From the NCBI GenBank assembly GCA_947624435.1, contig CANQKE010000009.1, positions 1-64,000 on the forward strand: a DNA stretch of 64,000 bases, written 5' to 3'. The DNA comes from an uncultured Ruminiclostridium sp. Lineage in GTDB: Bacteria > Bacillota > Clostridia > Oscillospirales > Ruminococcaceae. The position numbers and the translations under genes were made by a program. Of the stretch, positions 847-61,779 are shown piece after piece (within the stretch, counting starts at the first letter, position 1; the number at the start of each line of letters is the position of its first letter). The notes beneath the pieces are model-generated. The model ran no database searches and had not been told where the DNA came from. It saw nothing but the letters and a program-made list of their open reading frames with translations.

Positions 847-1491
847 ATGAATTACAACTGCGACTGGAAAAATGTATCATGGTGGCTGAACGACGGCACT
901 CTTAAATATGATGATGGAAACGGCGTACTGTATTTTGATACCGACGCCGAATATGCGCATTGCAGCGCCACGGTGACCGTACCGGACGGCAAAGAAGGCG
1001 TGGAGTGCGTGTTTGTTGCCGGAAACGCTTCTCCTCCCGGCGTGACAAGCGGAAAATTTGAGCTTGCCTTTTACGACAAAAATGACGTAAAGCTTAACAG
1101 CATGGAGGTCCTTGTAAAAGATAAAGACGAGTTTTACCGCTATACCTCCGCCGGAACAGGCGGCGCTGTCGTCATACCCGACAGCACGGAATATATTAAA
1201 TTTTCGGTAGAAGCTCACAAGGGCAGATCGTCAATGAAATTATACTTCAAAGACCTTTCATTCACATTTTACGATGAAGCCGAGGATATAGTCGGCGGCG
1301 AGCCTATAGGAGTATTTGTCAGCGAAAAGGTCGACGACAAGCCGATAAGAATAAATGAAGAAGCAAACTGGTTTACGGTAATTCTTATAATCGGCGCACT
1401 TATAACGGGCATAGCGGCTATCGCCGGAATAAAAACGGCAAAGAGAAAAAATACGCCTTCAAAAAGCGATCCCGACAGTAACAAATCTTAA
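847..1491 (+). CDS. hypothetical membrane-anchored protein (C-terminal TM helix plus KRKNTPSKSDPDSNKS tail)
   Basis: ORF with SD AAAGGGA; C-terminal hydrophobic segment VILIIGALITGIAAIAGI; tail shared with 2192..2629. Confidence 0.55.
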   Translation: MNYNCDWKNVSWWLNDGTLKYDDGNGVLYFDTDAEYAHCSATVTVPDGKEGVECVFVAGNASPPGVTSGKFELAFYDKNDVKLNSMEVLVKDKDEFYRYTSAGTGGAVVIPDSTEYIKFSVEAHKGRSSMKLYFKDLSFTFYDEAEDIVGGEPIGVFVSEKVDDKPIRINEEANWFTVILIIGALITGIAAIAGIKTAKRKNTPSKSDPDSNKS

Positions 1492-2828: not shown

Positions 2829-2981
2829 TATGAGCATTTTTATAATTACGGGGAAATCCCTTACTTGAAAAAATAAAAAATTTTCATATTACCTTTGACA
2901 TTTGAACCGCACCGATTTGTACGAATAGCACAAAAATATTGCTGATTTATTTGTAAATATCATGATTTTCTGGAAAATTTA

Positions 2982-3010
2982 TTGACACTATCTGCTAACA
3001 GTGATAAAAT
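2982..3010 (+). promoter_or_regulatory. sigma-A promoter TTGACA-17-TAAAAT for the giant surface protein gene; about 215-nt 5' UTR
   Basis: Exact -35 TTGACA, 17-nt spacer with TG-extended -10 (GTGATAAAAT). Confidence 0.6.
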
Positions 3011-3224
3011 TAAGATAATTCAATTTTTGGACGCAAATAACTTGCCTGAAGCCTCTTATTATCTGATACTATATTATTAGGTAAATTTACTTAATGAACA
3101 ATTATTGCCTTGCAAATTATCGGCATTTTGCCTGCTAAAGAGCAGGCTTTGCATAAACGCACGAGCGCTGCCGAGTTTCGGTGATCGGAAGCGCACGCAA
3201 AATTCTTTAAGGAGGATCAAAAAA

Positions 3225-6200
3225 ATGAGATTCAAACGGATCATATCCGGCGTGCTTGCAGCTGTGATCGCTGCCACGGCGGTTACGGTCATGCCGCTGA
3301 CAGCTTCAGCAGATCCCGCTCCCGTCGATAAGCCGGAAGGCGTAGAAAACGTTGTAGCATCTGCTGTAGTCGGCGTTCCCACAACATTAAAGCAGTATGA
3401 TTCTGTATGGGCCGGTATCTATAGCGGACTTACTGATGAAATGTATGAGCCGGAAAGCCCGTATTATCTGAAGGTTCAATTCAGTTACGGAGAAGGAAAA
3501 ATTGAGCAGCTGGGAGGAAATTCCTGGAGCGATTTGCAGTCATGGGGATTTACCAGCTATAATTCTTGGCTTAACCTTGGTAAGGTTTATGCCGAAGGCG
3601 CATCTTTTTCCAAGACGGGAATCAGTCTGGTACCGTCTACGAGTTCGAATGCGCCGACATTCGATTTCTACATACCAGTATCGGATATAAACAAAGAGTA
3701 TGGCAGCGACAAAACTACACTTTGCATACAGGGTAATGTTCAGAATTACGCTAATCTTACAGCTACTTTGGTTTCATTCGACATTGTAAAGTTTACTCCT
3801 GCTGACCCGCCTGCTTTACAGAAGTATAAATATCCTTTCGATACCGCTGAGGGAACTTCAAATAACTGGGGTCAACCGGCAAAAACTCAGCTTTATGGCG
3901 ACGAGAGTGAAACGGTAAAGATAAAATATTTGTCCGATAGCGACTTTACGATAGTTACCGAATTCAAATCGGAAAAACAACCTGTGATGGCACTTAGCGA
4001 CGGCAGCGGAAAAGGCGATCTTAACTGGCTTCAGATTGCTCCCTCTCAGGTGATACAAGGTAAAGCATATTGGTTGAAGAGCGATGTTCTCGCAGCATGG
4101 ACTAAAGCCGGAGGCGCCGATGATTTTTCGGATTTGAAGGCGATATTTATTTGTGATCAGGGCGTTTCTCTCACTGTAACAGATACCGCGCTTTACTCCG
4201 ACGTGCCTATCGCCGTTACCGAAGTTGCAATAACCGATGCGGACGGCAAAGACACAGAGAAGCTTGCACTCACCGAAAAAGCAACCGCTTCTCTCAAAGC
4301 TACAGTTAAGCCCGAAAATACCAACCAAGAATACACCATCGAGTGGAGTTCCGATAAAGAATCCGTTGTGTCCGTTGATAAAGACGGCAAGGTGACCGCT
4401 GTTGCAGCGGGTGAAGCCGTTATAACGGCAACCGTTAAGATTGGTACGGCCGCTTCTGCCAAGGCTGCCGCAATTTCCGATACGGTCAAGGTGACTGTTT
4501 CTCACGGAAAGATGGTTCTTACCGACGCGAAAGACGCGACCTGCACCGATGGAGGCAATATTAAATATTACACCTGTGATGTGTGTGGAAAAACCTATAG
4601 CGACGAAGCCGGCACAGAAGAAGTTACCAAGGTCACTACAGACGCTCTCGGTCATAAGATGACTAAGACCGAGGCTAAGGACGCTACCTGCACCGAAGAC
4701 GGAAACGTAGAGTATTACACTTGCGAGACCTGTAAGAAGACCTTTAAGGACGAACAGGGCAAGGAAGAAATAACCGATGTTACCGTAAAAGCTCTCGGTC
4801 ACAAGATGACCAAGACCGAGGCTAAGGACGCGACCTGCACCGAGGCCGGAAACGTAGAATACTACACCTGCGAAAACTGCAAGAAGACCTTTAAGGACGA
4901 ACAGGGCAAGGAAGAAATAACCGACGTTGCTATAAAAGCTCTCGGTCATAAGATGACTTTGCACGAGGCAACAGAGGCTACTTGCGTAAAGGAAGGTAAC
5001 AAGGAATATTATTCCTGCGAAAACTGCAAGAAGAATTTTGCCGATAAAAACGGCGAGCAGGAGCTTAAGGATATTGTAGTCCCCAAGAATCCCGATAACC
5101 ACAAGAATACCAAAACTGTCGGCAAGGTCGATCCCACAGAGGAAAAAGAGGGATATACCGGAGATATCGTCTGCGATGACTGCGGTCAAACCGTTAAAAA
5201 GGGCGAGTCCGTTCCCAAGCTTGACCATAAGCATGTTATGAAGCTTGTTGAAAAGAAAGACGCGACTTGTACCGAACCCGGTAATATAGCATATTACCTT
5301 TGCACTGTGTGTGAGAAAATGTATACTAACGAAGACGGAACCGGCATTCTTTCCGCCGACGAGATCGTTATAAAAGCTCTCGGCCATAAGATGACCAAGA
5401 CCGAGGCTAAAGACGCGACCTGCACCGAGGCAGGAAACGTAGAGTATTATACCTGCGAGACCTGCAAGAAGATTTTTAAGGATTCAGAGGGTAAAGAAGA
5501 AATAACCGACGTTACCGTAGCTGCTCTCGGTCATAAGATAACTAAGATAGAGGCTAAGGCTGCTACCTGCACCGAGGCCGGAAACGTAGAATATTACATC
5601 TGTGAGACCTGCAAGAAGACCTTTAAGGATGAACAGGGCAGCGAAGAAATAACTGACGTTACCGTAGCCGCTCTCGGTCATAAGATGGTCAAGACCGAGG
5701 CTAAGGCTGCTACCTGCACCGAGACCGGAAACGTAGAGTATTACACCTGCGATACCTGCAAGAAGACCTTTAAGGATGAACAGGGCAAGGAAGAAATAAC
5801 CGATGTTACCGTAGCTGCTCTCGGTCATAAGATGGCCAAGACCGAGGCTAAGGACTCTACCTGCACCGAGGCCGGAAACGTAGAGTATTACACCTGTGAG
5901 ACCTGCAAGAAGACCTTTAAGGATGAACAGGGCAGTGAAGAAATAACCGACGTTACTGTGGCTGCTCTCGGTCATAAGATGACCAAGACCGAGGCTAAGG
6001 ACGCGACCTGCACAGAGGCTGGAAACGTAGAGTATTACACCTGCGATACCTGCAAGAAGACCTTTAAGGATGAACAGGGCAGTGAAGAAATAACCGACGT
6101 TACTGTAGCCGCTCTCGGTCATAAGATGACTAAGACCGACGCTAAGGACGCGACCTGCACCGAGGCCGGAAACGTAGAGTATTACACCTGCGATACCTGC

Positions 6201-6830
6201 AAGAAGACCTTTAAGGATGAACAGGGCAGTGAAGAAATAACCGACGTTACTGTAGCCGCTCTCGGTCATAAGATGACTAAGACCGAGGCTAAGGACGCGA
6301 CCTGCACCGAGGCCGGAAACGTAGAGTATTACACCTGCGAAAACTGCAAGAAGACCTTTAAGGACGAACAGGGCAGTGAAGAAATAACCGACGTTATCGT
6401 AGCCGCTCTCGGTCATAAGCTTACTAAGGCAGAGGCTATAGAGCCTACCGAAACCGAAGACGGCAATATAGAATATTACGTTTGCGAGGTTTGCGGTAAA
6501 CTGTATCTTGACAATGAGGGAACACAGGAAACCACCGCAGAGGAAGTAATAGTTCCTGCTATAGGCTCCGATGTTCCTCCGACAAGTGAGGACAGCACAC
6601 CCTCCGAGGACAGCACTCCTTCCGAGGACAGCACTCCCTTCGAGGATAGCACTCCCTCCGAGGATAGCACTCCTTCCGAGGATAGCACTTCTTCCGAGGA
6701 TAGCACTCCTTCAGGGGAAAGCAAGCCTTCTGACAACCCGGGAACCGGCGTTGGCTTTGGCGGGGCAGCCGCTCTTGTTGCACTTGGTGCAGCGGCAGTG
6801 GCAGTTGCATCTTTCCGCAAAAAGAAGTAA
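3225..6830 (+). CDS. giant cell-surface protein: signal peptide, N-terminal beta-rich region with Big_2-like Ig domain, about 14 tandem 49-aa His-Cys3 repeats, SEDSTP linker, C-terminal hydrophobic anchor plus RKKK
   Basis: ATG at 3225 with SD AAGGAGG 9 nt upstream; signal peptide MRFKRIISGVLAAVIAATAVTVMPLTASA; Big_2-like VTAVAAGEAVITATVKIGT; repeats ALGHKMTKTEAKDATCTEAGNVEYYTCETCKKTFKDEQGKEEITDVTVA; C-terminus GGAAALVALGAAAVAVASFRKKK. Confidence 0.85.
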   Translation: MRFKRIISGVLAAVIAATAVTVMPLTASADPAPVDKPEGVENVVASAVVGVPTTLKQYDSVWAGIYSGLTDEMYEPESPYYLKVQFSYGEGKIEQLGGNSWSDLQSWGFTSYNSWLNLGKVYAEGASFSKTGISLVPSTSSNAPTFDFYIPVSDINKEYGSDKTTLCIQGNVQNYANLTATLVSFDIVKFTPADPPALQKYKYPFDTAEGTSNNWGQPAKTQLYGDESETVKIKYLSDSDFTIVTEFKSEKQPVMALSDGSGKGDLNWLQIAPSQVIQGKAYWLKSDVLAAWTKAGGADDFSDLKAIFICDQGVSLTVTDTALYSDVPIAVTEVAITDADGKDTEKLALTEKATASLKATVKPENTNQEYTIEWSSDKESVVSVDKDGKVTAVAAGEAVITATVKIGTAASAKAAAISDTVKVTVSHGKMVLTDAKDATCTDGGNIKYYTCDVCGKTYSDEAGTEEVTKVTTDALGHKMTKTEAKDATCTEDGNVEYYTCETCKKTFKDEQGKEEITDVTVKALGHKMTKTEAKDATCTEAGNVEYYTCENCKKTFKDEQGKEEITDVAIKALGHKMTLHEATEATCVKEGNKEYYSCENCKKNFADKNGEQELKDIVVPKNPDNHKNTKTVGKVDPTEEKEGYTGDIVCDDCGQTVKKGESVPKLDHKHVMKLVEKKDATCTEPGNIAYYLCTVCEKMYTNEDGTGILSADEIVIKALGHKMTKTEAKDATCTEAGNVEYYTCETCKKIFKDSEGKEEITDVTVAALGHKITKIEAKAATCTEAGNVEYYICETCKKTFKDEQGSEEITDVTVAALGHKMVKTEAKAATCTETGNVEYYTCDTCKKTFKDEQGKEEITDVTVAALGHKMAKTEAKDSTCTEAGNVEYYTCETCKKTFKDEQGSEEITDVTVAALGHKMTKTEAKDATCTEAGNVEYYTCDTCKKTFKDEQGSEEITDVTVAALGHKMTKTDAKDATCTEAGNVEYYTCDTCKKTFKDEQGSEEITDVTVAALGHKMTKTEAKDATCTEAGNVEYYTCENCKKTFKDEQGSEEITDVIVAALGHKLTKAEAIEPTETEDGNIEYYVCEVCGKLYLDNEGTQETTAEEVIVPAIGSDVPPTSEDSTPSEDSTPSEDSTPFEDSTPSEDSTPSEDSTSSEDSTPSGESKPSDNPGTGVGFGGAAALVALGAAAVAVASFRKKK
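4644..6550 (+). repeat. tandem array of 147-bp (49-codon) coding repeats; units 5376..6404 are nearly identical at the nucleotide level
   Basis: GCTCTCGGTCATAAGATGAC recurs at 4644, 4791, 4938, 5376, 5523, 5670, 5817, 5964, 6111, 6258, 6405 (period 147 bp); one enlarged unit at 4938..5375. Confidence 0.9.
6583..6726 (+). repeat. 8 x 18-bp tandem repeat encoding the (S/F)EDSTP linker
   Basis: TCCGAGGA(C/T)AGCACTCC(C/T) repeated in tandem. Confidence 0.85.
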
Positions 6831-7057
6831 ACTCTTCTAAAATAAAACTACAAGGCGGAGCTAAGGCTCTGCCTTTTAGTTTGTCAAAAGCTATTTGTCG
6901 TCCCGCAAACACTATCCTCCCGTTCTCCCTTGACAATCACCTGTCAATTTAGTACAATTAACTTAAACGGGGTGATCATGTGGAACCTATAGAACAGAAT
7001 ATCAATACGCTGTATCAAAAGCAGGATATTTCCGATGCGGCGCCGAAAGAGATACTC
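6790..7057 (+). repeat. direct repeat X1: anchor-coding end, terminator, promoter, RBS and first 26 codons of hydE (copy of 8655..8917)
   Basis: About 90% nucleotide identity with 8655..8917, including GGCGGAGCTAAGGCTCTGCCTTTTAGTTTGTCAA and GGGGTGATCATGTGGAACCTATAGAACAGAATATCAATACGCTGTATCAAAAGCAGGATATT. Confidence 0.85.
6853..6882 (+). terminator. rho-independent terminator of the giant surface protein gene
   Basis: GGCGGAGC-TAAG-GCTCTGCC hairpin followed by TTTTAGTTTG. Confidence 0.7.
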
Positions 7058-7369
7058 AGAAACAAAAGAGAGAAACGTATCAAAATAATATCACGGACAG
7101 TCACTGTAGCTATAATAATATTGTTCATAGTATCAGCTATCTTGTTTTATGCCAGTCATCATACATCATTAAGGTATAATGATTGGTGGATAGTCGGAAA
7201 TAACATTTCAGCTGTTGAAGCAAGATACGGAAAATATGATATCGACACCGGGAGAATAGCTGCTTATTATCTTTATAATTTTGACACAAACGATTATTAT
7301 TACTATATGTACTATGACAGCGACGGGATAATTACAAGAGTTGAAACAGGTATTCAAATAGGCGGATAA
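6980..7369 (+). pseudogene. chimeric ORF: duplicated hydE start (GTG, first 26 codons MEPIEQNINTLYQKQDI.DAA.KEIL) fused to an unrelated TM-containing sequence; probably a duplication and insertion remnant
   Basis: N-terminal 26 aa nearly identical to HydE at 8839; similarity ends at 7057; no radical-SAM motif. Confidence 0.4.
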
Positions 7370-7464: not shown

Positions 7465-7938
7465 ATGAGCTTTGACAAAATAAAACCGTATATCGCTGCA
7501 ATTGCTGCGTCCGTTACAATATACGTTATAACGGTTTTATATGTAATCTTCATAGCGCCCGCTCTTCTTGTCGCTATCGGAAGAAACGGCTATAATCCCT
7601 TGGGCGCGCTACTGTGTTTTATAATAGATTTTGTTGTTCAGTTTGCCGTAATTGTTGTCCCGGCTGCCGTTTTGGCAAAAAAGTTTAATATAACGGCAAA
7701 ATGTATACCTGTAACCGTCGTTTCGTTATTTTGCATCTTTGCAATATATATTCCTCCGTGGCGGTATCTGTTTATACTTACCTCCGAATGGGGACCGGGT
7801 ATGTTGGTGAAAGCCGCCGGAATGTCGTCGGTAACAGCGTCGCTTTTTATAACCGTGCAATATACGCTTGTTATGTGGTTTACGGTGTGCATCGTACAAA
7901 AGCACCAAAAAAAGATTTCAAATAAGCAAAAGATATAA
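7465..7938 (+). CDS. hypothetical polytopic membrane protein (157 aa) inside the cassette
   Basis: SD AAGGAGG 8 nt before the ATG; 4 hydrophobic segments. Confidence 0.5.
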   Translation: MSFDKIKPYIAAIAASVTIYVITVLYVIFIAPALLVAIGRNGYNPLGALLCFIIDFVVQFAVIVVPAAVLAKKFNITAKCIPVTVVSLFCIFAIYIPPWRYLFILTSEWGPGMLVKAAGMSSVTASLFITVQYTLVMWFTVCIVQKHQKKISNKQKI

Positions 7939-8024: not shown

Positions 8025-8699
8025 ATGAGAAGAATATTCGCGGCGGCACTCGCGGCAATAACTGCGGTAAGCGCATTTTCGCTCTGCGCGTTTGCGGAAG
8101 AAAAAGAGGAAACTAAAGTAGTGCTTACAACGCTGGAAAGATTTTCGATCCACAGCGCGTATGAGTTTAAGTATCTTGGCGACGGTTATGCTTCTTACAG
8201 CGGTTTTGACGACAAAGGAAACAACATTACCGGTACTATTCGTTTTGAAAAGGACGAATACGGCAATCTCACCTACACAGATGTTGAAGCCGGCATTGAG
8301 ATCGATCCAAGCGGCGATCCTTCAAGTGTGAACAGCGAGTATACTCCCGTTATAAAAGACGGCAAGGGTTATCTTGTCGATAAGGACGGCAACCGCGTTT
8401 CCGATATGATAGATGAAGTATCTTATGTCAACACGCTTGACGAAGACTTGTACGAATTTTGGGTAGGCTTTAAGGAAGAGATCATATTTGTATCCTACAA
8501 AACAAATACATCCGCTCCCGCCGAGAGCGAGCCTATTTCCGATGAACCTGCGGTCGATGAACCTGCTGCCGATGAGCCTGCGGCTGATGAGCCGATAACC
8601 TCTCCCAACACAATCGTTATAGTAATTTCAATAACGATAGGCGTTATCGTAATTGCAGGCGCGGCGGTGGCAGTTATATTTTTCAGAAAAAAGAAGTAA
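8025..8699 (+). CDS. secreted, membrane-anchored surface protein with acidic (EPAxD)n linker and C-terminal hydrophobic anchor plus RKKK
   Basis: Signal peptide MRRIFAAALAAITAVSAFSLCAFA; DEPAVDEPAADEPAADEP; C-terminus IGVIVIAGAAVAVIFFRKKK; the anchor-coding end is homologous to that of 3225..6830. Confidence 0.7.
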   Translation: MRRIFAAALAAITAVSAFSLCAFAEEKEETKVVLTTLERFSIHSAYEFKYLGDGYASYSGFDDKGNNITGTIRFEKDEYGNLTYTDVEAGIEIDPSGDPSSVNSEYTPVIKDGKGYLVDKDGNRVSDMIDEVSYVNTLDEDLYEFWVGFKEEIIFVSYKTNTSAPAESEPISDEPAVDEPAADEPAADEPITSPNTIVIVISITIGVIVIAGAAVAVIFFRKKK

Positions 8700-8917
8700 A
8701 CTCTTCTTAAATAAGACTACGAGGCGGAGCTAAGGCTCTGCCTTTTAGTTTGTCAACTATCAATCATTCCCGCAAACACTCTCCTCCCTTGACAATTACC
8801 TATCAATTTAGTATAATTAACTTAAACGGGGTGATCATGTGGAACCTATAGAACAGAATATCAATACGCTGTATCAAAAGCAGGATATTCCCGATGCGGC
8901 GTTAAAAGAGATACTCG
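8655..8917 (+). repeat. direct repeat X2 (copy of 6790..7057) carrying the functional hydE promoter and start
   Basis: See X1. Confidence 0.85.
8722..8750 (+). terminator. rho-independent terminator (copy of the 6853 terminator)
   Basis: GGCGGAGCTAAGGCTCTGCC plus TTTTAGTTTG. Confidence 0.7.
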
Positions 8918-9879
8918 AAACGGATGTATATGACGATCTGCTGTTCTCACTTGCGGATAAGGTAAGGAAAGAGCATTACGGCACCGACGTATATCTGCGC
9001 GGATTGATAGAATTTACCAACTATTGCAAAAATAACTGCTACTATTGCGGAATACGCCGCGATAATACCAAGCTTAAGCGCTATCGCCTGAGCGAAGAAG
9101 AAATACTGTCCTGCTGCGAGGAGGGCTACCGACTGGGCTTTCGCACGTTTGTTTTGCAGGGAGGCGAGGACCCGTATTACACCGACGAGCGTATATGCGG
9201 CATTGTGGCGAATATTCGGCAAAAATTCCCCGACTGCGCGATAACCTTATCAATAGGAGAAAAACCGCGTGAGAGCTATCAGGCGTATTTTGACGCGGGT
9301 GCTGACCGTTATCTTCTGCGGCACGAGACCGCGTCGGGGGAGCATTACGCAAAGCTGCACCCTTCACAGATGAGCCTTGATGATCGCAAGCGCTGCCTGT
9401 TTGATCTGAAAGCTATCGGCTATCAGGTGGGCTCGGGCTTTATGGTGGGATCTCCGTATCAAACCACGGAAAACCTTATCAGCGATCTGCGATTTTTACA
9501 GCAGCTGTCGCCGGACATGATAGGTATAGGGCCGTATATTAAGCATAAGGACACCCCCTTTCGGGATAAGGAAAACGGCAGCTTGGAGCTTACGCTGAGG
9601 CTGGTGGCTATATTAAGGCTGCTGTTCCCGTATGCACTGATACCCGCTACCACCGCGCTGGGCTCTATCCACCCGCAGGGCAGGGAAAGAGGACTGAAAG
9701 CCGGCGCGAACGTCGTAATGCCGAACCTTTCTCCCGTGGGAGTAAGAGAGCTTTACAAGCTGTACGAAAACAAGCTCTGCACCGGAGAGGAGGCCGCCCA
9801 GTGCCGCGGCTGCCTTGAACAAAGGATAATCTCCGCCGGGTATAAAGCGGTCACCTCCCGCGGCGACGTTATCAGATAA
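8839..9879 (+). CDS. hydE: [FeFe]-hydrogenase maturase HydE (radical SAM)
   Basis: GTG start; RGLIEFTNYCKNNCYYCGIRRDN (CxxxCxxC) and LQGGEDPYY, RYLLRHETAS, IGIGPYIKH motifs matching the HydE family; hydG and hydF present at 52680..55322. Confidence 0.9.
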   Translation: MEPIEQNINTLYQKQDIPDAALKEILETDVYDDLLFSLADKVRKEHYGTDVYLRGLIEFTNYCKNNCYYCGIRRDNTKLKRYRLSEEEILSCCEEGYRLGFRTFVLQGGEDPYYTDERICGIVANIRQKFPDCAITLSIGEKPRESYQAYFDAGADRYLLRHETASGEHYAKLHPSQMSLDDRKRCLFDLKAIGYQVGSGFMVGSPYQTTENLISDLRFLQQLSPDMIGIGPYIKHKDTPFRDKENGSLELTLRLVAILRLLFPYALIPATTALGSIHPQGRERGLKAGANVVMPNLSPVGVRELYKLYENKLCTGEEAAQCRGCLEQRIISAGYKAVTSRGDVIR

Positions 9880-14841: not shown

Positions 14842-17124
14842 GTGAACAAAGGTCTTAAGAAAAACATGACCAAGTCGGTTTTGCTGACTGTTGCGATAAT
14901 AGTTTCGATAGTGGCTTTTGCGACTATAGCGACCACGTTCATGCTGTATGTTTACGGTCAGCTCAATTCCGTAACGGACGAATACGTCGAGGAGATAACC
15001 AACCGCAAGACGGATTATGTAAACACTCTTTTGGAAAACGATATGAAGCTTGTACAGAATCTTTCCTCGTCGCTTTCGGATTACGAAAATCTCGACGAAA
15101 AAATAATAGACTCCACGCTCGAAAGGATAACCCAAATAAACGGCTATCTGAACTTTATACTTATAAAACCGGACGGCGAAGTTATTTCTTACAGAAACGA
15201 GGATATAAACGTAGCCAGCAGAGTCTATTTCAAGACCGCTTTGCAGGGCGAGGCTTATATTTCCAAGCCTATTTTCAGCAATCCCGACAACAGCATGGCA
15301 AACGTCATTTCCGCGCCGATATACAATGACTCTAAAATAGTCGGCGTTGTGGCGGGACTTCGCAGCGTGAACGATTATTCCAACGAGATAAACCTTGCGG
15401 TACGCGGAGTTGAAAACAACGCAAACGGCTATATCGTAAACACCGACGGCGATATTATCATAAGCGGCACTAAGCTGCTGCCGGACGCCGTTATCCCGAA
15501 CGAGGAGGAGAGCTTTTTTGACAGCGCTCTTATAAGCGCGGCGGGCGAAAACGAACGCCAAAGAGTTGTAGATGATTTTACTAAAAAGGATTCTGCCGGC
15601 TCTGTAAAGATGACGGTAGACGGAAAACAATATATCGTGTATTATACCGACCTCGCCACCGATCCCGATCTGCACTATGTGGTGGTTTTCGATGAGTCAA
15701 CGGTATTCAACGACCTGTTCAGATACATGGAGAGCAACCTTGTCATGTATCTGGTATTCCTCGGCGTTCTTATAATCATGGCGCTGGCGTATTTCCTTAT
15801 CATGCACACCAGCCTGCGCTCGCTGGGAAACGCAAACGAGCTTATGAGCAAGGTAGCTTATGAGGATTCAATAACCGGCTTTAGTACATACAACAAGTTT
15901 GAAGAGGATATAAAAGAACTGCTCCAGCATGATTACCGGCGTTATTGCCTTGTAAGCTTCGATATAGATAAATTCAAGGCGATAAACGATATGTTCGGTC
16001 ATGAAGAGGGCAACCGTATGCTAAGGCTGGTCGCGGAAACGGTGCAGCGCAATCTTCTGGACTGGGAGACCTTTGCCAGAATAAATTCCGACAACTTCGT
16101 TATCCTGTTGTCTTATAAGGACGATGCGGATATAAACGACAGGATAAGAAAGATAATATCGGCGATAAGCTATGAATTTTCGGATTATGTTCCGGTATTG
16201 TCCTTCGGCGTTTACAGGATAGTGGATAAGAACGTATCGCTCAGGCGTATGACAGACTGCGCGGATATCGCAAGACGCACCGTGAAATATCGGGAGGAAA
16301 GCAGTGTCGCTTACTTTACCGACGCTATGCTGGAAAGCATGCGTGAGGAAAAGGCTATAGAAAATGAAATGCAGAACGCTCTGGATACCCACGAGTTTTC
16401 ACTGTATCTTCAGCCGAAATTCTCGCTCAGCGGTCCTCCGGTGCTGACCGGCGCGGAGGCGTTGGTGCGCTGGATACGCAAGGGCAGCGTAGTATCGCCC
16501 GGAAAGTTTATCCCGCTGTTTGAAAAGAACAGATTTATAATCAAGCTTGACTATTACATTCTCGATCAGGTATGCCGCTGCCTAAAAAAATGGGAGAGCG
16601 AGGGCATACCGAGCATACTTATCTCGGTAAACATGTCAAGAGTACATTTGCGCGACCCCGGCTTTGTGGATAAGCTGGAGGAGATATGCAAAACTCACGG
16701 CGTCGCTCCGTCTATGATAGAGATAGAGATAACCGAAAGCGCGGCATACGACTCTATGGACGTGCTGATAGATGTGGTACACGACCTTAAGAACCGAGGA
16801 TTCCATATTTCTATCGACGATTTCGGTTCGGGCTATTCGTCGCTGAATATGCTCAAAGACTTACCGGTCGACGTGCTCAAAATAGACAGGGTGTTCCTTA
16901 CCGAAACGAATAATAAGCGCGCTAACGACATTATAGGCCACGTTATCAAAATGGCGCGCACGCTCGGCATGGAAACTATATGCGAGGGCATTGAAACGGA
17001 CGAGCAGGCTCAGCTGCTGCGCTCGCTCGGCTGCGATATGGCGCAGGGCTTCTTCTTCGCAAAGCCTATGCCGTATACCGACTTTGAACGCATTATAGAG
17101 CGTTCTCACAATATAAATCACTGA
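14842..17124 (+). CDS. membrane sensor c-di-GMP phosphodiesterase: N-terminal TM plus Cache-like periplasmic domain, degenerate GGDEF (NSDNF), intact EAL
   Basis: GTG start 9 nt after AAAGGAG; EAL motifs AEALVRW, DDFGSGYSSL, KIDRVF; GGDEF position reads RINSDNF. Confidence 0.85.
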   Translation: MNKGLKKNMTKSVLLTVAIIVSIVAFATIATTFMLYVYGQLNSVTDEYVEEITNRKTDYVNTLLENDMKLVQNLSSSLSDYENLDEKIIDSTLERITQINGYLNFILIKPDGEVISYRNEDINVASRVYFKTALQGEAYISKPIFSNPDNSMANVISAPIYNDSKIVGVVAGLRSVNDYSNEINLAVRGVENNANGYIVNTDGDIIISGTKLLPDAVIPNEEESFFDSALISAAGENERQRVVDDFTKKDSAGSVKMTVDGKQYIVYYTDLATDPDLHYVVVFDESTVFNDLFRYMESNLVMYLVFLGVLIIMALAYFLIMHTSLRSLGNANELMSKVAYEDSITGFSTYNKFEEDIKELLQHDYRRYCLVSFDIDKFKAINDMFGHEEGNRMLRLVAETVQRNLLDWETFARINSDNFVILLSYKDDADINDRIRKIISAISYEFSDYVPVLSFGVYRIVDKNVSLRRMTDCADIARRTVKYREESSVAYFTDAMLESMREEKAIENEMQNALDTHEFSLYLQPKFSLSGPPVLTGAEALVRWIRKGSVVSPGKFIPLFEKNRFIIKLDYYILDQVCRCLKKWESEGIPSILISVNMSRVHLRDPGFVDKLEEICKTHGVAPSMIEIEITESAAYDSMDVLIDVVHDLKNRGFHISIDDFGSGYSSLNMLKDLPVDVLKIDRVFLTETNNKRANDIIGHVIKMARTLGMETICEGIETDEQAQLLRSLGCDMAQGFFFAKPMPYTDFERIIERSHNINH

Positions 17125-24756: not shown

Positions 24757-24790
24757 AAGCTCGAAAGGAGAATGCTTGCTTCGCAAGCGG
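24757..24790 (+). repeat. partial copy of R1 core (AAGCTCGAAAGGAGA-ATGCTTGCTTCGCAAGCGG) preceding the beta-mannosidase start
   Basis: Match to the R1 SD plus hairpin; 3' arm degenerate (CAT to CGG). Confidence 0.5.
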
Positions 24791-24798
24791 CAATAAAT

Positions 24799-27294
24799 AT
24801 GAAAATTTCATTAAACGGCGAATGGCGGTTAGTAACTTCCGACGGGAAATACGATACCAAAGCGCAGATACCCGGCTCGCTTTACGGGACGCTTATAAGT
24901 AAGGGGCTTATCGACGACCCGTATTATCGCGACAACGAATATAAAAGCACTTATATCAGCGACACCGACTGCTTATTTTTCCGCAGCTTTGACGCAAAGG
25001 AGATAACGGACTGTGAACATAAGCTGCTGAAATTCTACGGGATAGATACCTTGTCACAGGTGACGCTTAACGGTGTTGAACTCGGAAAGACCGACAATAT
25101 GCACCGCGAGTATGTTTTCGATATCAGCGATATAGTAAAGCCGGAGGGGAATTTGCTGACGGTAAATATTTTTTCTCCTATAAAATACATAAAGGAAAAA
25201 CAATTATCCGAGCCGCTGTGGGGAGTAGCCTCCACCATGCCGGGCTATCCGCATATCAGAAAAGCGCATTATATGTTCGGCTGGGATTGGGGCCCGATTC
25301 TGCCGGACGCGGGGATTTGGCGCGGCGTCGAGCTTATCGGCGTAAACGGAGGGCTTATCGACGGGGTCTATATCTCTCAGGAGCATGAACACGCGGCGGA
25401 CGGGGTCGTAACGCTGGAAGTACAAGCCGGGCTTGCTTACATTGCAAATGGGCTTCAATTGGCTGCAGAGCTTATTTCTACCGACGGCAGGACGTTCACC
25501 GCTAAATCCGACGTAAACGGCGAAAGCTGCGCTCTTTCTTTGACAGTGGACGAGGCTGAGCTGTGGTATCCCCGCGGCTACGGAGAACAGCCTCTGTACG
25601 AGCTTACCGTAACGCTTTATCATAACGGCGAAACCGCGGACGAATATAAGACGAAAATAGGTCTGCGCACCGTGACGGTAAGCCGCGACGACTGTGAAAA
25701 CGGCGTCGGCGAGGAATTTGCTTTTATGGTAAACGGCGTAAAGCTGTTCGCCATGGGCGCGAATTATATCCCGGAGGATCAGATAATTTCCCGCTGCAAC
25801 AAGGAAAGGACTGCCCGCCTGCTTGAGAATTGCTGCAAGGCAAATTACAACATGATAAGAGTGTGGGGCGGCGGCTATTACCCGGACGATCGGTTTTACG
25901 ATGAATGCGACAGGCTGGGACTGCTGGTGTGGCAGGACTTTATGTTCGCCTGCTCGGTATATAGGGCGGACGCTGAGTTTATAAATACTGTCAGAGCCGA
26001 GGTGAGGGATAATATAAAGCGGCTGCGCAATCATCCGAGCCTTGCCATGTGGTGCGGCAACAACGAAATAGAATCGATGTGGCCGGGCTGGGGTCTGCCA
26101 AAAGACCAACAGAAGTACCGCGAGGATTATCTTGTGCTGTTTGAGCAGGTACTTCCCGAAGAGCTGGAAAAGTACGATCCCGTCACCTTTTACTGGCCGT
26201 CCTCGCCGTCCTCCGGAGGGGGATTTGACAATACCGGCGACGAAACACGCGGCGACTGGCATTACTGGTCGGTGTGGCACGGACTAAAGCCGTTTACGGA
26301 TTATTATAACTATCATTACCGCTTTTGTTCGGAGTTCGGATTCGAGTCGCTGCCGGATATGAAAACAATAAACACCTTTGCAAAAAAGCAGGACCTCAAT
26401 CTTTGCTGTCCGGTAATGGAGGCGCACCAGAAATGCGAGGGCGGCACCGAAAAGATAATGTACTACCTCGCTCAGATGGTGCATTATCCCTACAGCTTTT
26501 CCGCGCTGGTGTACGCGTCGCAGATAGTGCAGGCGGACGCGGTAAGGATAAACGCCGAACACATGCGCCGCTCGCGGGGTATATGTATGGGCTGCCTTTA
26601 TTGGCAGGTCAACGACTCTAATCCGGTGATATCCTGGTCATCCGTCGATTATTACGGCAGACTGAAAGCGCTGCATTACCATGCGGCAAAATTCTTTTCG
26701 CCGGTGCTCATCTCTGCCGAAAGATCCGGCAATGATATCGTGCTGAATGTTTCTTCCGAAAGGCAGCAGCCGTTCGTCGGTGAAATTATATGGAATACCC
26801 GCCTTAATACCGGCGAGATAATAGCGTCCGGCTCTGTGCTGACATCAATAAAACCGCTTTCGGCAAAGGATATTATAGCGTTTGACGAGCAGACTACGCG
26901 CCTTACCGAAGAGAACAAAAACCGCGCGTATCTTGAGTTTTCCGTTACCGAAAATAAAAACGTTATAAGCTCCGGCATATACCATGCGGTTCAGCCCAAG
27001 GCGTTCAGCTTTCTTGACCCGCAGCTCAGTATAAGCGTTGCCGACGAGGGTGAACGCTTTGCGGTATCGGTCAGCGCCTTAGCTTACGCAAAGGGCGTGC
27101 GGCTGGATACCGACGGATTCGACTGCGTCTTTTCGGATAACTGGTTCGATATCCATGCCGATACGGTGACGGTTTATGCGGATAAAAGCGGACTTCCCGA
27201 CGGAATGACGCTCGAAAAATTTTCCTCCTCGCTTACCGCCGTATCGTATTTTGAGGCTATGGGACTGTCTGAGCAGGGCGTAAAGGAAGCATAA
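24799..27294 (+). CDS. beta-mannosidase, glycoside hydrolase family 2
   Basis: GH2 beta-mannosidase architecture; WQDFMFAC, NEY and WYWPSSPS regions; start ambiguous between 24772 (inside the R1 hairpin, MLASQAAIN-) and 24799 (MKISLNGEW). Confidence 0.85.
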   Translation: MKISLNGEWRLVTSDGKYDTKAQIPGSLYGTLISKGLIDDPYYRDNEYKSTYISDTDCLFFRSFDAKEITDCEHKLLKFYGIDTLSQVTLNGVELGKTDNMHREYVFDISDIVKPEGNLLTVNIFSPIKYIKEKQLSEPLWGVASTMPGYPHIRKAHYMFGWDWGPILPDAGIWRGVELIGVNGGLIDGVYISQEHEHAADGVVTLEVQAGLAYIANGLQLAAELISTDGRTFTAKSDVNGESCALSLTVDEAELWYPRGYGEQPLYELTVTLYHNGETADEYKTKIGLRTVTVSRDDCENGVGEEFAFMVNGVKLFAMGANYIPEDQIISRCNKERTARLLENCCKANYNMIRVWGGGYYPDDRFYDECDRLGLLVWQDFMFACSVYRADAEFINTVRAEVRDNIKRLRNHPSLAMWCGNNEIESMWPGWGLPKDQQKYREDYLVLFEQVLPEELEKYDPVTFYWPSSPSSGGGFDNTGDETRGDWHYWSVWHGLKPFTDYYNYHYRFCSEFGFESLPDMKTINTFAKKQDLNLCCPVMEAHQKCEGGTEKIMYYLAQMVHYPYSFSALVYASQIVQADAVRINAEHMRRSRGICMGCLYWQVNDSNPVISWSSVDYYGRLKALHYHAAKFFSPVLISAERSGNDIVLNVSSERQQPFVGEIIWNTRLNTGEIIASGSVLTSIKPLSAKDIIAFDEQTTRLTEENKNRAYLEFSVTENKNVISSGIYHAVQPKAFSFLDPQLSISVADEGERFAVSVSALAYAKGVRLDTDGFDCVFSDNWFDIHADTVTVYADKSGLPDGMTLEKFSSSLTAVSYFEAMGLSEQGVKEA

Positions 27295-59508: not shown

Positions 59509-61779
59509 TTATTTACGCGGGACTTGCCATTTGCTGCCGCCGAAGTTTTTATTCAGCGATTCGATAGCGGCGTACATCTGTTCGTCGGTTATCCCGCCAA
59601 AGCTGCGTATCTGCCTGAGCGGCATACCGTTCACCATTGCGCGGACAGCCTCAATTTCAAAATTATCGCCGCCCAGCATTCCTTGGGTCACGTTCGGCAG
59701 CAGTATATCCAGCGCTTCCTTGCCCTCGGGGTAGTCCATAAATTCATCGAATGTTGTATTTTCGTGAGCGACGAATGGCAGCTTGACGGTCGCGGTCAGC
59801 TTTAATCCTGCCGAAAGTCTTATGTCGGCGGAAGAACTGCCCGCCATTACCGTATATTTTCCGGTAGGAGCGTACCAGTCGCAAAGCTCTTCGTTATAAT
59901 AGCTGAAGCTGCGCTTGTTCAGCGTAAAGGTGACGGTCTTGCTTTCGCCGGGATCGAGGCATATCTTTTCAAAGCCTTTAAGCTCCTTGACGGGTCTTTT
60001 TGCAAAGCCGGTATTGTCCGCAACATAAAGCTGCACGACCTCTTTTCCGGAACAGCTGCCGGTGTTGGTAACGGTGACGCTTGCGGTAACGGTATCGTTG
60101 TCCGTTATATCGTCGCAGGAGAGCGTAAGGTCGGAATATTCAAACGTTGTATAGGACAGCCCGTGACCGAACGGGAACAGCACGTCCTGCTCTTTCTTTT
60201 CGTAATATCTGTAGCCGACGAAAACGCCCTCGTTATATTCCGCGTGTTCGTTGCCGGGATAGGTAAGATAGCAGGGAGTATCGCTCAGCTTTTTGGGGAA
60301 TGTCTCCGCCAGCTTGCCGCAGGGATTGGCTTTTCCAAACAGGATATCCACCGCCGCTTCTCCGGCTGCCTCTCCGCAAAGATACAGCTCGACGATGGCG
60401 TTTACTCTGTCTGCCCAAGGCATTTCCACCGGAGAACCGTTGTGCAGCACTACTATAACATTGTCCGAAACGTCGCATATCTTCTCGATAAGCTCGTTTT
60501 GAGAATCCGGCAGCTTCATGTGCCTGCGGTCATATCCCTCCGACTCAAAGCTGTCCGGCAGCCCGGCAAAGATCACCGTAGCGTCGCACTTTGACGCAAG
60601 GTCTGTCGCTGCACTCAGCAGGTTAGGGTCGGTCTCGCCGCTCTCGCGGTCAAAGCCTTTAGCGTAGTGAACGTCGCTTATTTTTTCCGCCGCCTCAAGA
60701 GCCGATACCGTTGTTTTGGTATTTATATGGGAACTGCCGCCGCCCTGTATCCTCGGATTTTCGGCAAACTCGCCGATGAACGCGATCTCGATGCTTCTTT
60801 CCGGCAGGGGAAGAGCGCCGTTGTCATTTTTGAGAAGTACGATGCTTTCCCTTGCGAACTGCCGCGCTTTTTCATGATCGCCTTGTATATCCAGCGGCAT
60901 TTTTTCGGGCAGCTCGTCGGCGTATTTGAACACTTTTTCAAGTATGCGCTTTACCGCTTTATCAAGAACCGGTTCGCTCAGCTTTCCGCTCTTTACCGCC
61001 TCGACTATTTTGGCGTCGTTTACTCCTTTGCTGGAGGGCATTTCAAGATCAAGCCCGGCGGCAAGTCCCTCGACGCGGTCGTTCACCGCGCCCCAGTCGG
61101 ACATAACATAACCCTCAAAGCCCCATTCGTCGCGGAGTATCTCGGTCAATGTGTGCTTGTTTTCCGAGCCGTAAACGCCGTTTATGCGGTTGTAGCAGCA
61201 CATTACCGTCCACGGCTGCGCTTTTTTGACGGCGGTCTCAAACGCGGGCATATATATTTCCCGCAGCGTGCGCTCGCTCATATCGGACGAGCAGGTCATT
61301 CTGCGATGCTCCTGGCTGTTCGTTGCGAAATGCTTTATAGAAGTGCCTATGTTCTTGCTTTGCACTCCGTTTATGTAAGCGGCGGACAGCTCTCCCGCAA
61401 GATACGGGTCCTCCGAAACATACTCGAAATTTCTTCCGCACAGCGGCGAACGCTTGATATTCACCGCGGGGCCGAGCAGTACGGATACCCCGGCGCGTTT
61501 ACATTCTTCTCCGAGCGCCTCTCCCATTTCCTCTAACAGTTCTCTGTCAAAAGAGCAGGCGGTAGCGCATGCCGCCGGAAAGCACACCGCTTGTATGCTT
61601 TCGTTGGGATTTTGACTGCCAAGGTCCTGCGTGCGCAGCCCGTGAGGACCGTCGCTTACCATAACGTCGGGTATTCCCAGCCTTTCCACCGCCTTGGTAT
61701 GCCAGAAATCCGCGCCGGAGCAAAGCCCCGCCTTTTCTTCAAGCGTAAGCTCGCTTATAAGTTCGTCGATATTTCTCAT
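59509..61779 (-). CDS. glycoside hydrolase family 3 beta-glucosidase (BglX-like)
   Basis: GH3 N- and C-terminal domains; nucleophile region YVMSDWGAV; fibronectin-III-like C-terminus. Confidence 0.9.
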   Translation of the reverse strand: MRNIDELISELTLEEKAGLCSGADFWHTKAVERLGIPDVMVSDGPHGLRTQDLGSQNPNESIQAVCFPAACATACSFDRELLEEMGEALGEECKRAGVSVLLGPAVNIKRSPLCGRNFEYVSEDPYLAGELSAAYINGVQSKNIGTSIKHFATNSQEHRRMTCSSDMSERTLREIYMPAFETAVKKAQPWTVMCCYNRINGVYGSENKHTLTEILRDEWGFEGYVMSDWGAVNDRVEGLAAGLDLEMPSSKGVNDAKIVEAVKSGKLSEPVLDKAVKRILEKVFKYADELPEKMPLDIQGDHEKARQFARESIVLLKNDNGALPLPERSIEIAFIGEFAENPRIQGGGSSHINTKTTVSALEAAEKISDVHYAKGFDRESGETDPNLLSAATDLASKCDATVIFAGLPDSFESEGYDRRHMKLPDSQNELIEKICDVSDNVIVVLHNGSPVEMPWADRVNAIVELYLCGEAAGEAAVDILFGKANPCGKLAETFPKKLSDTPCYLTYPGNEHAEYNEGVFVGYRYYEKKEQDVLFPFGHGLSYTTFEYSDLTLSCDDITDNDTVTASVTVTNTGSCSGKEVVQLYVADNTGFAKRPVKELKGFEKICLDPGESKTVTFTLNKRSFSYYNEELCDWYAPTGKYTVMAGSSSADIRLSAGLKLTATVKLPFVAHENTTFDEFMDYPEGKEALDILLPNVTQGMLGGDNFEIEAVRAMVNGMPLRQIRSFGGITDEQMYAAIESLNKNFGGSKWQVPRK

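Follow-up and report, generated by a model that had tools for sequence, protein, structure and literature searches.

A surface protein with a stalk of fourteen Cys/His modules, probably a CBM65-headed, Periscope-like adhesin of an uncultured Oscillospirales bacterium

A long open reading frame (ORF) built largely of similar Cys/His units lies on the forward strand of a 64,000-nucleotide stretch from an uncultured Ruminiclostridium sp. (GenBank assembly GCA_947624435.1, contig CANQKE010000009.1; the whole stretch is called the window below), and it raises the questions of what such a protein is and where its repeated Cys and His residues would hold a metal. A preliminary description of the sequence had taken the product for a large secreted, anchored surface protein, and this was supported by the ORF at 3225–6830, which encodes 1201 amino acids (aa) with a signal peptide at one end and a hydrophobic helix plus RKKK at the other. 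The domain order was determined as listed below, and the protein is, with good probability, a fibrillar, Periscope-like adhesin of an uncultured Oscillospirales member that combines a head with a CBM65-type carbohydrate-binding module (CBM), a stalk of 14 modules, and a C-terminal anchor.

3225..6830, plus strand: coding sequence, 1201 aa, stop codon within the coordinates, ATG 8 nt after a strong ribosome-binding site (RBS)
3225..3311, plus strand: signal peptide MRFKRIISGVLAAVIAATAVTVMPLTASA, seen in the sequence; head homologues have an N-terminus of the same type
3312..3836, plus strand: head sub-domain A, residues 30–204, a beta-sandwich matched to no family
3837..4181, plus strand: head sub-domain B, residues 205–319, a CBM65-type carbohydrate-binding module
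4239..4454, plus strand: Big_2 Ig-like domain, residues 339–410, Pfam PF02368 with 41.5 bits against a cut-off of 22.8
4494..6551, plus strand: array of 14 Cys/His modules, residues 424–1109, from the unit table, the Cys/His positions and, in part, PF23674
4644..4937, plus strand: canonical 147-bp units 2 and 3, 90% identical to each other and 84–91% to units 7–13
5376..6404, plus strand: canonical 147-bp units 7–13, pairwise DNA identity 84–97%, units 10–13 alone 92–97%
6588..6723, plus strand: SEDSTP linker, 18 bp x 7.6 copies by Tandem Repeats Finder, a candidate wall-spanning segment
6735..6749, plus strand: NPGTG, possibly a variant of a sortase motif, immediately ahead of the hydrophobic helix and basic tail
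6750..6827, plus strand: C-terminal hydrophobic helix VGFGGAAALVALGAAAVAVASF, then RKKK; the hydrophobic segment has 22 residues

The N-terminal part had been described as a Big_2-like fold; such a domain is indeed present at residues 339–410, but residues 30–335 form a separate two-domain head, for which the AF2 model reached a mean pLDDT score (predicted local distance difference test) of 89.7. The family of sub-domain A is rare, with 13 representatives among 1.84 billion proteins. Sub-domain B matched Pfam CBM65_1 above its cut-off and also matched the CBM65 fold, and three of its four tryptophans stand at positions that are aromatic in every aligned head homologue. In CBM65A the ligand-binding tryptophans are W55, W60, W99, and W108, and the ligands of CBM65 are xyloglucan and beta-glucans (PMC3576085). 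Unlike the CBM65 of the Eubacterium cellulosolvens Cel5A (PDB 4afd and 4aek; PMC3576085), the module in the window belongs to a non-catalytic surface protein and comes after an extra beta-sandwich domain. The head homologues are likewise N-terminal in other multi-domain surface proteins, with different stalks.

The repeat array was then resolved into units by cutting the protein at each "ALGH", which yielded 14 units starting at 4494, 4644, 4791, 4938, 5091, 5223, 5376, 5523, 5670, 5817, 5964, 6111, 6258, and 6405. C-x2-C occurs in every one of them, so that the earlier count of about 14 repeats was borne out, while the His/Cys3 set ascribed to all of them was not. In detail, His and three Cys are found in 12 of the 14 units, and units 5 and 14 carry Glu (E639 and E1076) at the first-Cys position, contrary to the statement that every unit keeps the complete set. 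Nine units (2, 3, and 7–13), rather than 11, are canonical 49-aa copies with 84–97% DNA identity; units 1, 4, 5, 6, and 14 are divergent or of other length. Consistently, Tandem Repeats Finder reported a 147-bp period at 4644–5034 and at 5376–6438, the latter with 7.2 copies, 91% matches, and a score of 1699.

To call the DNA of 5376–6404 almost identical was an overstatement, given the 84–97% among units 7–13, although units 10–13 do reach 92–97%. The nine canonical units gave a mean nonsynonymous divergence (dN) of 0.064 and a mean synonymous divergence (dS) of 0.353, that is, a dN/dS of 0.18, suggesting that most of the canonical copies are old and under purifying selection. Units 10–13 alone look recent or homogenised, and the recent expansion proposed before would concern these at most. 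The exact runs common to the units are mostly of 16–63 bp, and the longest, 119 bp, is shared by units 11 and 12 (97% identical); it is long enough for unequal recombination.

The layout agrees with that of the Periscope Proteins and other fibrillar adhesins (SasG/Aap, Rib, and the SHIRT domains of Sgo_0707; PMC8201768), which have the same order of a head, a rod of similar domains, and a C-terminal anchor, here represented by the CBM65-type head, nine units with 84–97% DNA identity, and the hydrophobic helix with RKKK. As in Periscope Proteins, repeat number differs among proteins that share this module and have near-identical ends. Cohesin proteins of Gemmiger, whose first 175 residues are 99–100% and last 110 residues 95–100% identical, were found with lengths of 1006, 1057, and 1250 aa, corresponding to 14, 15, and 19 C-x2-C motifs or 11, 12, and 16 complete units; every one of these lengths turned up several times, and some caution is due to their source in metagenome assemblies. 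These differing motif numbers between ends of 99–100% identity supported the earlier view that a stalk of this kind may plausibly vary in length. In two respects the window protein differs from Periscope Proteins: its stalk consists of a small, putatively metal-dependent beta module instead of Ig-like, G5/E, or SHIRT domains, and its inter-repeat DNA identity of 84–97% is lower than that of the most variable members.

The gene itself, which comes from a gut or rumen lineage of Clostridia, is, by sequence comparison, without a close relative in any collection searched. Nothing was on record for the exact protein, no head orthologue was found among the GTDB species genomes, and the best head homologue in a 5.8-billion-protein set was 39% identical. 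The best SecA match was 77% identical and came from Oscillospiraceae and Ruminiclostridium metagenome-assembled genomes.

The repeat module had been regarded as an undescribed domain family, which did not hold. The Pfam profile PF23674 (RYYR-CCHC) matched the protein with 85.5 bits against a gathering cut-off of 27, in five stretches, a score that is the sum of many weak per-unit matches. The match is partial, as each unit covers profile positions 30–63 of 79 (about 34 positions); two-unit fragments scored 24.3–27.7 bits, i.e. at the cut-off, and neither the short-type relatives nor the segment of the Thomasclavelia ramosa protease introduced below matched PF23674. Because of the partial profile matches, the scores at the cut-off, and the unmatched relatives, PF23674 does not amount to a dedicated description of the 49-aa unit: Pfam recognises its core, the common C-x10-C-x2-C with an aromatic pair before the knuckle (EYYTC), and holds no dedicated model for the unit. 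A literature search on "RYYR-CCHC" and "PF23674" found no paper. The module was detected in 1002 protein clusters at E <= 0.001 among 8000 candidates scored, and its partners include cohesin, dockerin, BspA-type leucine-rich repeats (LRR), choline-binding repeats, SLH, and Big_2.

Among the sequences of solved structures one relative was found, the T. ramosa IgA protease (9qa6_A; UniProt Q9AES2), in which residues 854–898, one unit, matched with an E value of 6e-8, and a query of mixed units extended the match to residues 854–979 (E 3e-8). This region corresponds to predicted zinc-binding rod domains that were named ZBD1/ZBD2 (PMC12237041) and CTD2/CTD4 (PMC12415215) in two papers of 2025, and the module is homologous to ZBD1/CTD2; the long-type unit recurs in the first ZBD1 subdomain as HNLTLVAAKAATCTTAGNSAYYTCDGCDKWFAD...EITD (E 6e-8). 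The T. ramosa modules were described as three-stranded sheets arranged end to end (PMC12237041, PMC12415215), neither paper found a structural homologue for them, and the long-type subdomain is distantly like the TFIIS zinc ribbon (PMC12237041). Both the window stalk and the T. ramosa ZBDs are all-beta and Cys/His-rich. The latter are flanked by a functional head and, on the C-terminal side, a sorting signal, with zinc predicted between the sheets (PMC12237041, PMC12415215), and small-angle X-ray scattering (SAXS) showed a fully extended rod (PMC12415215). In contrast to the 3 + 2 heterogeneous and mostly His2Cys2 subdomains of T. ramosa, the window protein has 14 units, nine near-identical, of the Cys3His type, and its head is CBM65-type instead of an M64 protease. 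Zinc binding and fold are predictions in both proteins, and we infer zinc binding and a rod shape for the window stalk from its homology to the T. ramosa modules.

The structure prediction suggested for consecutive repeats was carried out in part, for units 7–9, whose AF2 model was confident (pLDDT 95.5) and all-beta with no helix. The module is thus predicted to consist of small all-beta sheets, as in the T. ramosa-type module, and no solved fold resembling it was found. The Y-x-C-x2-C-x3-F hairpin matched the zf-met and zf-C2H2 profiles over their first half, positions 1–14 of 25 only, and the window units differ from C2H2 fingers by having no H-x3-H, no helix, and a single C-x2-C knuckle each. 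They are thus not classical C2H2 fingers.

The position of a metal site was deduced from which residues the arrays can lose. The invariance of the His and the three Cys in a 33-sequence alignment (A1), which is typical of structural zinc sites, spoke for the zinc idea of the preliminary description but not for its grouping of H-x11-C-x10-C-x2-C within one unit, as it is only at the last unit that homologous arrays can dispense with the first Cys. The sample comprised 240 homologues with 644 distinct units, collected with a search pattern that requires His and C-x2-C. At clean array ends, the first Cys was absent from 87 of 114 last units (76%), compared with 1 of 104 penultimate and 1 of 556 earlier units; counted over distinct units, 49 of the 68 without the first Cys were last in their array vs. 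18 of the 576 with it (Fisher 1.6e-42). Its place was taken by various residues (E, Y, K, Q, G, V, A, and T), a pattern suggestive of relaxed constraint, and no His follows in 46 of the 49 last units that are without the first Cys, while His and C-x2-C are held by the last units by construction of the search pattern. At the other end of the arrays, the upstream His was already present in 108 of 111 first units, and an extra His (HxH) occurred in 10 of 24 first units without an upstream Cys vs. 63 of 631 internal units. In the window protein, the terminal unit 14 has E1076, and the unit following the Cys-less unit 5 opens with DHKH. Since the first Cys is missing almost only from last units, the metal site most likely lies across the unit junctions, and it seems reasonably probable from these sequences that the loop Cys of unit i completes a site formed by the His and the knuckle of unit i+1. 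Judged from the DSSP string of the model, the strand order would put the His and knuckle at one end of the sheet and the loop Cys at the other; the inter-unit grouping agrees with this up-and-down order and with the published "interface" description.

Several points weigh against this reading and its zinc. Related proteins enter the array-end statistics, which inflates the P values and overstates independence; the first unit of the window protein has three ligands only (H427, C451, and C454) and lacks the fourth; the "CCHC" in the name of PF23674 may imply yet another ligand grouping; and 9qa6 resolves S32–N876 only, leaving the zinc-binding domain outside the map and its zinc only predicted (PMC12237041).

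The competing view of the site is that each 49-aa unit binds one zinc through its own His and three Cys, like beads on a string. The tightly conserved spacing between His and first Cys (x11–x12), the retention of all four residues by every unit in A1, and the 108 of 111 first units with a His upstream, by which each unit looks complete alone, would all suit such fingers. However, if the first Cys served its own unit, its disappearance almost exclusively from last units, with varied replacements, would be unexpected; the up-and-down topology indicated by the DSSP string would set the loop Cys opposite the His and knuckle, and both T. ramosa papers place the sites so as to link neighbouring sheets (PMC12237041, PMC12415215), making the intra-unit site rather unlikely. 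Two further groupings were rejected. If C-x2-C of unit i shared its metal with His and first Cys of unit i+1, first units should be the ones to lose the first Cys, a loss seen there in only 2 of 68; if all three Cys of unit i were paired with His of unit i+1, C-x2-C should decay in last units and His should be dispensable in first units, neither of which was seen. A role of the Cys in disulfides only was also rejected, in view of the three Cys with an invariant His in each unit, the anaerobic habitat, and a homologue without disulfides; the T. ramosa protein has none and needs a reducing agent to stay monodisperse (PMC12237041). As a separate observation, in some relatives the first Cys is substituted in all units, by His in homologue P0097 (PATHTENG) and by Glu in homologue P0117, which also has an additional His three positions ahead of the knuckle (KHEEC), like the T. 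ramosa units; judging by these residues, such proteins may have alternative His2Cys2 sets that complete the site within the unit.

Two other alternatives concern the array as a whole, and we consider both improbable. The repeats might be functional in themselves, serving for instance in multivalent adhesion or metal scavenging and not just as a passive spacer, in line with the purifying selection on the canonical units (dN/dS 0.18) and with the ligand binding of some Periscope stalk domains (PMC8201768). The joining of the module to many heads and anchors (cohesin, dockerin, BspA-type LRR, choline-binding repeats, and SLH) can be read the same way, but many unrelated heads are also what is expected of a generic stalk; moreover, the T. 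ramosa protease does not need its modules for catalysis (PMC12237041), and the predicted sites are fully coordinated, with no free metal position (PMC12415215). Alternatively, the repeat number could be an artefact in which the assembly collapsed or expanded similar units and the true gene has another length; for this, the 97% identity and 119-bp exact run of units 11 and 12 provide an opportunity and the lack of any independent copy of the exact protein leaves room. Against it, most unit pairs differ at 3–16% of bases and mostly share exact runs of 16–63 bp, so ordinary reads can place the units, and the frame is intact through all of them, with the divergent units 4–6 breaking up the array.

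For the adhesin with a metal-bridged stalk, which we prefer, the following arrangement is proposed. After Sec export, the C-terminal hydrophobic helix and RKKK would keep the protein at the membrane, or, alternatively, a sortase would join it to the wall via the NPGTG that precedes the helix, and the acidic, Ser/Pro-rich SEDSTP repeats would span the wall. The 14 small all-beta modules would form a thin rod of very roughly 40–55 nm, as scaled from the about 110 A reported for the homologous three-subdomain ZBD1. One structural zinc per module junction, coordinated by the loop Cys of unit i and the His and C-x2-C knuckle of unit i+1, would probably keep the rod stiff. Twelve junctions would be Cys3His sites, the junction of units 5 and 6 would use E639 or H668 with H670, C693, and C696, and the first unit would offer only a three-ligand half-site (H427, C451, and C454). 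At the tip of the rod, Big_2 and the two-domain head would be presented; because the second head domain is CBM65-type, the likely target is a beta-1,4-glucan, e.g. xyloglucan or mixed-linkage glucan, on plant particles. The ligand and the anchoring mode are both presumed here.

The C-terminus was found as the preliminary description had it, with the SEDSTP linker, hydrophobic helix, and RKKK and without LPXTG, and in addition NPGTG directly precedes the helix. NPGTG, hydrophobic segment, and RKKK follow one another as in a sortase sorting signal, though with a variant motif. The NCBIfam matches included no LPXTG-anchor model, and no sortase-like TLxTC motif occurs in the window. The C-termini of homologues carry SPKTG, SPQTG, SPSTG, or no motif. 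Arguing against a working signal, NPGTG is no documented motif for the lineage, and the neighbouring protein at 8025–8699 (plus strand) has the same hydrophobic helix with an FRKKK tail and no NPxTG-like motif, by which the case for NPGTG is weakened. Two small secreted or anchored proteins in the window, at 8025–8699 and 847–1491 (both plus strand), belong to no Pfam family, the former containing PAxDE repeats. A set of 38 cohesin-headed relatives (homologues P0003–P0061) have ...KSPKTGLF as their very end, SPKTG being followed by neither a hydrophobic segment nor a basic tail, which is unusual for a sortase substrate; these relatives also have a separate Cys/His motif (CKLGNDNRWHCGKCAH) in the last ~45 residues.

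Downstream of the gene, a direct repeat of ~250 bp was noted at 6800–7057 and 8669–8916, with copies 91–95% identical and ~1.86 kb apart. It contains, in order, the last surface-protein codons (...FRKKK stop), the terminator of that gene, a promoter-like site (TTGACA-17-TACAAT, 6930–6958), and the first ~26 codons of a radical-SAM gene, which lies at 8839–9879; the first copy makes a chimeric ORF at 6980–7369 with the radical-SAM N-terminus MEPIEQNINTLYQKQDI. Between the copies lie a membrane protein (7465–7938) and the small surface protein at 8025–8699. The direct repeat looks like a duplication or an insertion mediated by the common 3′ anchor region. Farther away, the window encodes a GGDEF-EAL cyclic di-GMP protein with a sensor domain (14842–17124), a glycoside hydrolase family 2 (GH2) beta-mannosidase-like protein (24772–27294), and a GH3 glycosidase (59509–61779), which fit a polysaccharide-degrading anaerobe.

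The following signals flank the gene.

2787-2821: bidirectional terminator-like hairpin, separating the surface-protein gene from the genes upstream
2982..3010, plus strand: sigma-70-like promoter TTGACA-17-TGnTAAAAT, by consensus match only, 11/12 plus TG
3017..3224, plus strand: predicted 5′ leader, ~208 nt, with the RBS AAGGAGG at 3210–3216
6852..6885, plus strand: terminator-like hairpin (6852–6875) with a weak T tail, 3′ of the surface-protein gene

An in-frame TTG at 3105, upstream of the ATG at 3225, is an unlikely start. The promoter proposed before was found again at 2982–3010 with 11 of 12 matches plus TG, but the high expression deduced from it was speculation from a consensus match, promoter-like sites in the region being no more numerous than expected from shuffled sequence. 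The leader proposed with it is present as well, with a length of ~208 rather than 215 nt. Its fold is modest (z-score -2.1). Rfam gave no match in the whole window at gathering thresholds or in 2950–3260, which spans the leader, at E <= 1, and thus no riboswitch or known leader was found over the 5′ leader by this search. The leader also contains a GC-rich hairpin, GCCTGCTAAAGAGCAGGC, followed by TTTGCAT (3131–3155, plus strand) ~70 nt before the start codon, with a T run too short for a clear terminator. Within the repeat region, two minus-strand ORFs (3858–5387, 509 aa, and 5484–6416, 310 aa) have a repetitive translation (...GYFFTALFILKGLLAG...); they were rejected as genes and are most likely shadows of the stop-free, A-rich repeat.

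A more speculative and rather doubtful idea is that the stalk is a metal- or redox-switchable rod, through which the environment would tune how the cell adheres to plant particles. If true, zinc-stapled junctions would make a stiff spacer of ~50 nm, whereas zinc withheld by host or competitor chelation, or oxidation of the thiols, would open the junctions and leave the head retracted or floppy; the near-identical units would also let recombination change the rod length.

The analysis thus shows how the domains are ordered, the repeats with their invariant Cys/His set, a confident all-beta prediction for the module, and a match of the head to the CBM65 fold. The module is of a kind that is already known but barely characterised, and the gene opens no new category; in itself it probably encodes an ordinary adhesin of an anaerobe that degrades fibre. 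Well over a thousand surface proteins of Firmicutes from gut and rumen, an IgA protease among them, contain such small Cys/His stalk modules, with zinc predicted only, no solved structure, and no dedicated family model. The unusually regular array of the window protein, with nine near-identical units, suits structural and metal analysis, and metal sites that bridge modules, if true, would account for how a rigid rod is made from thin sheets without a hydrophobic core.

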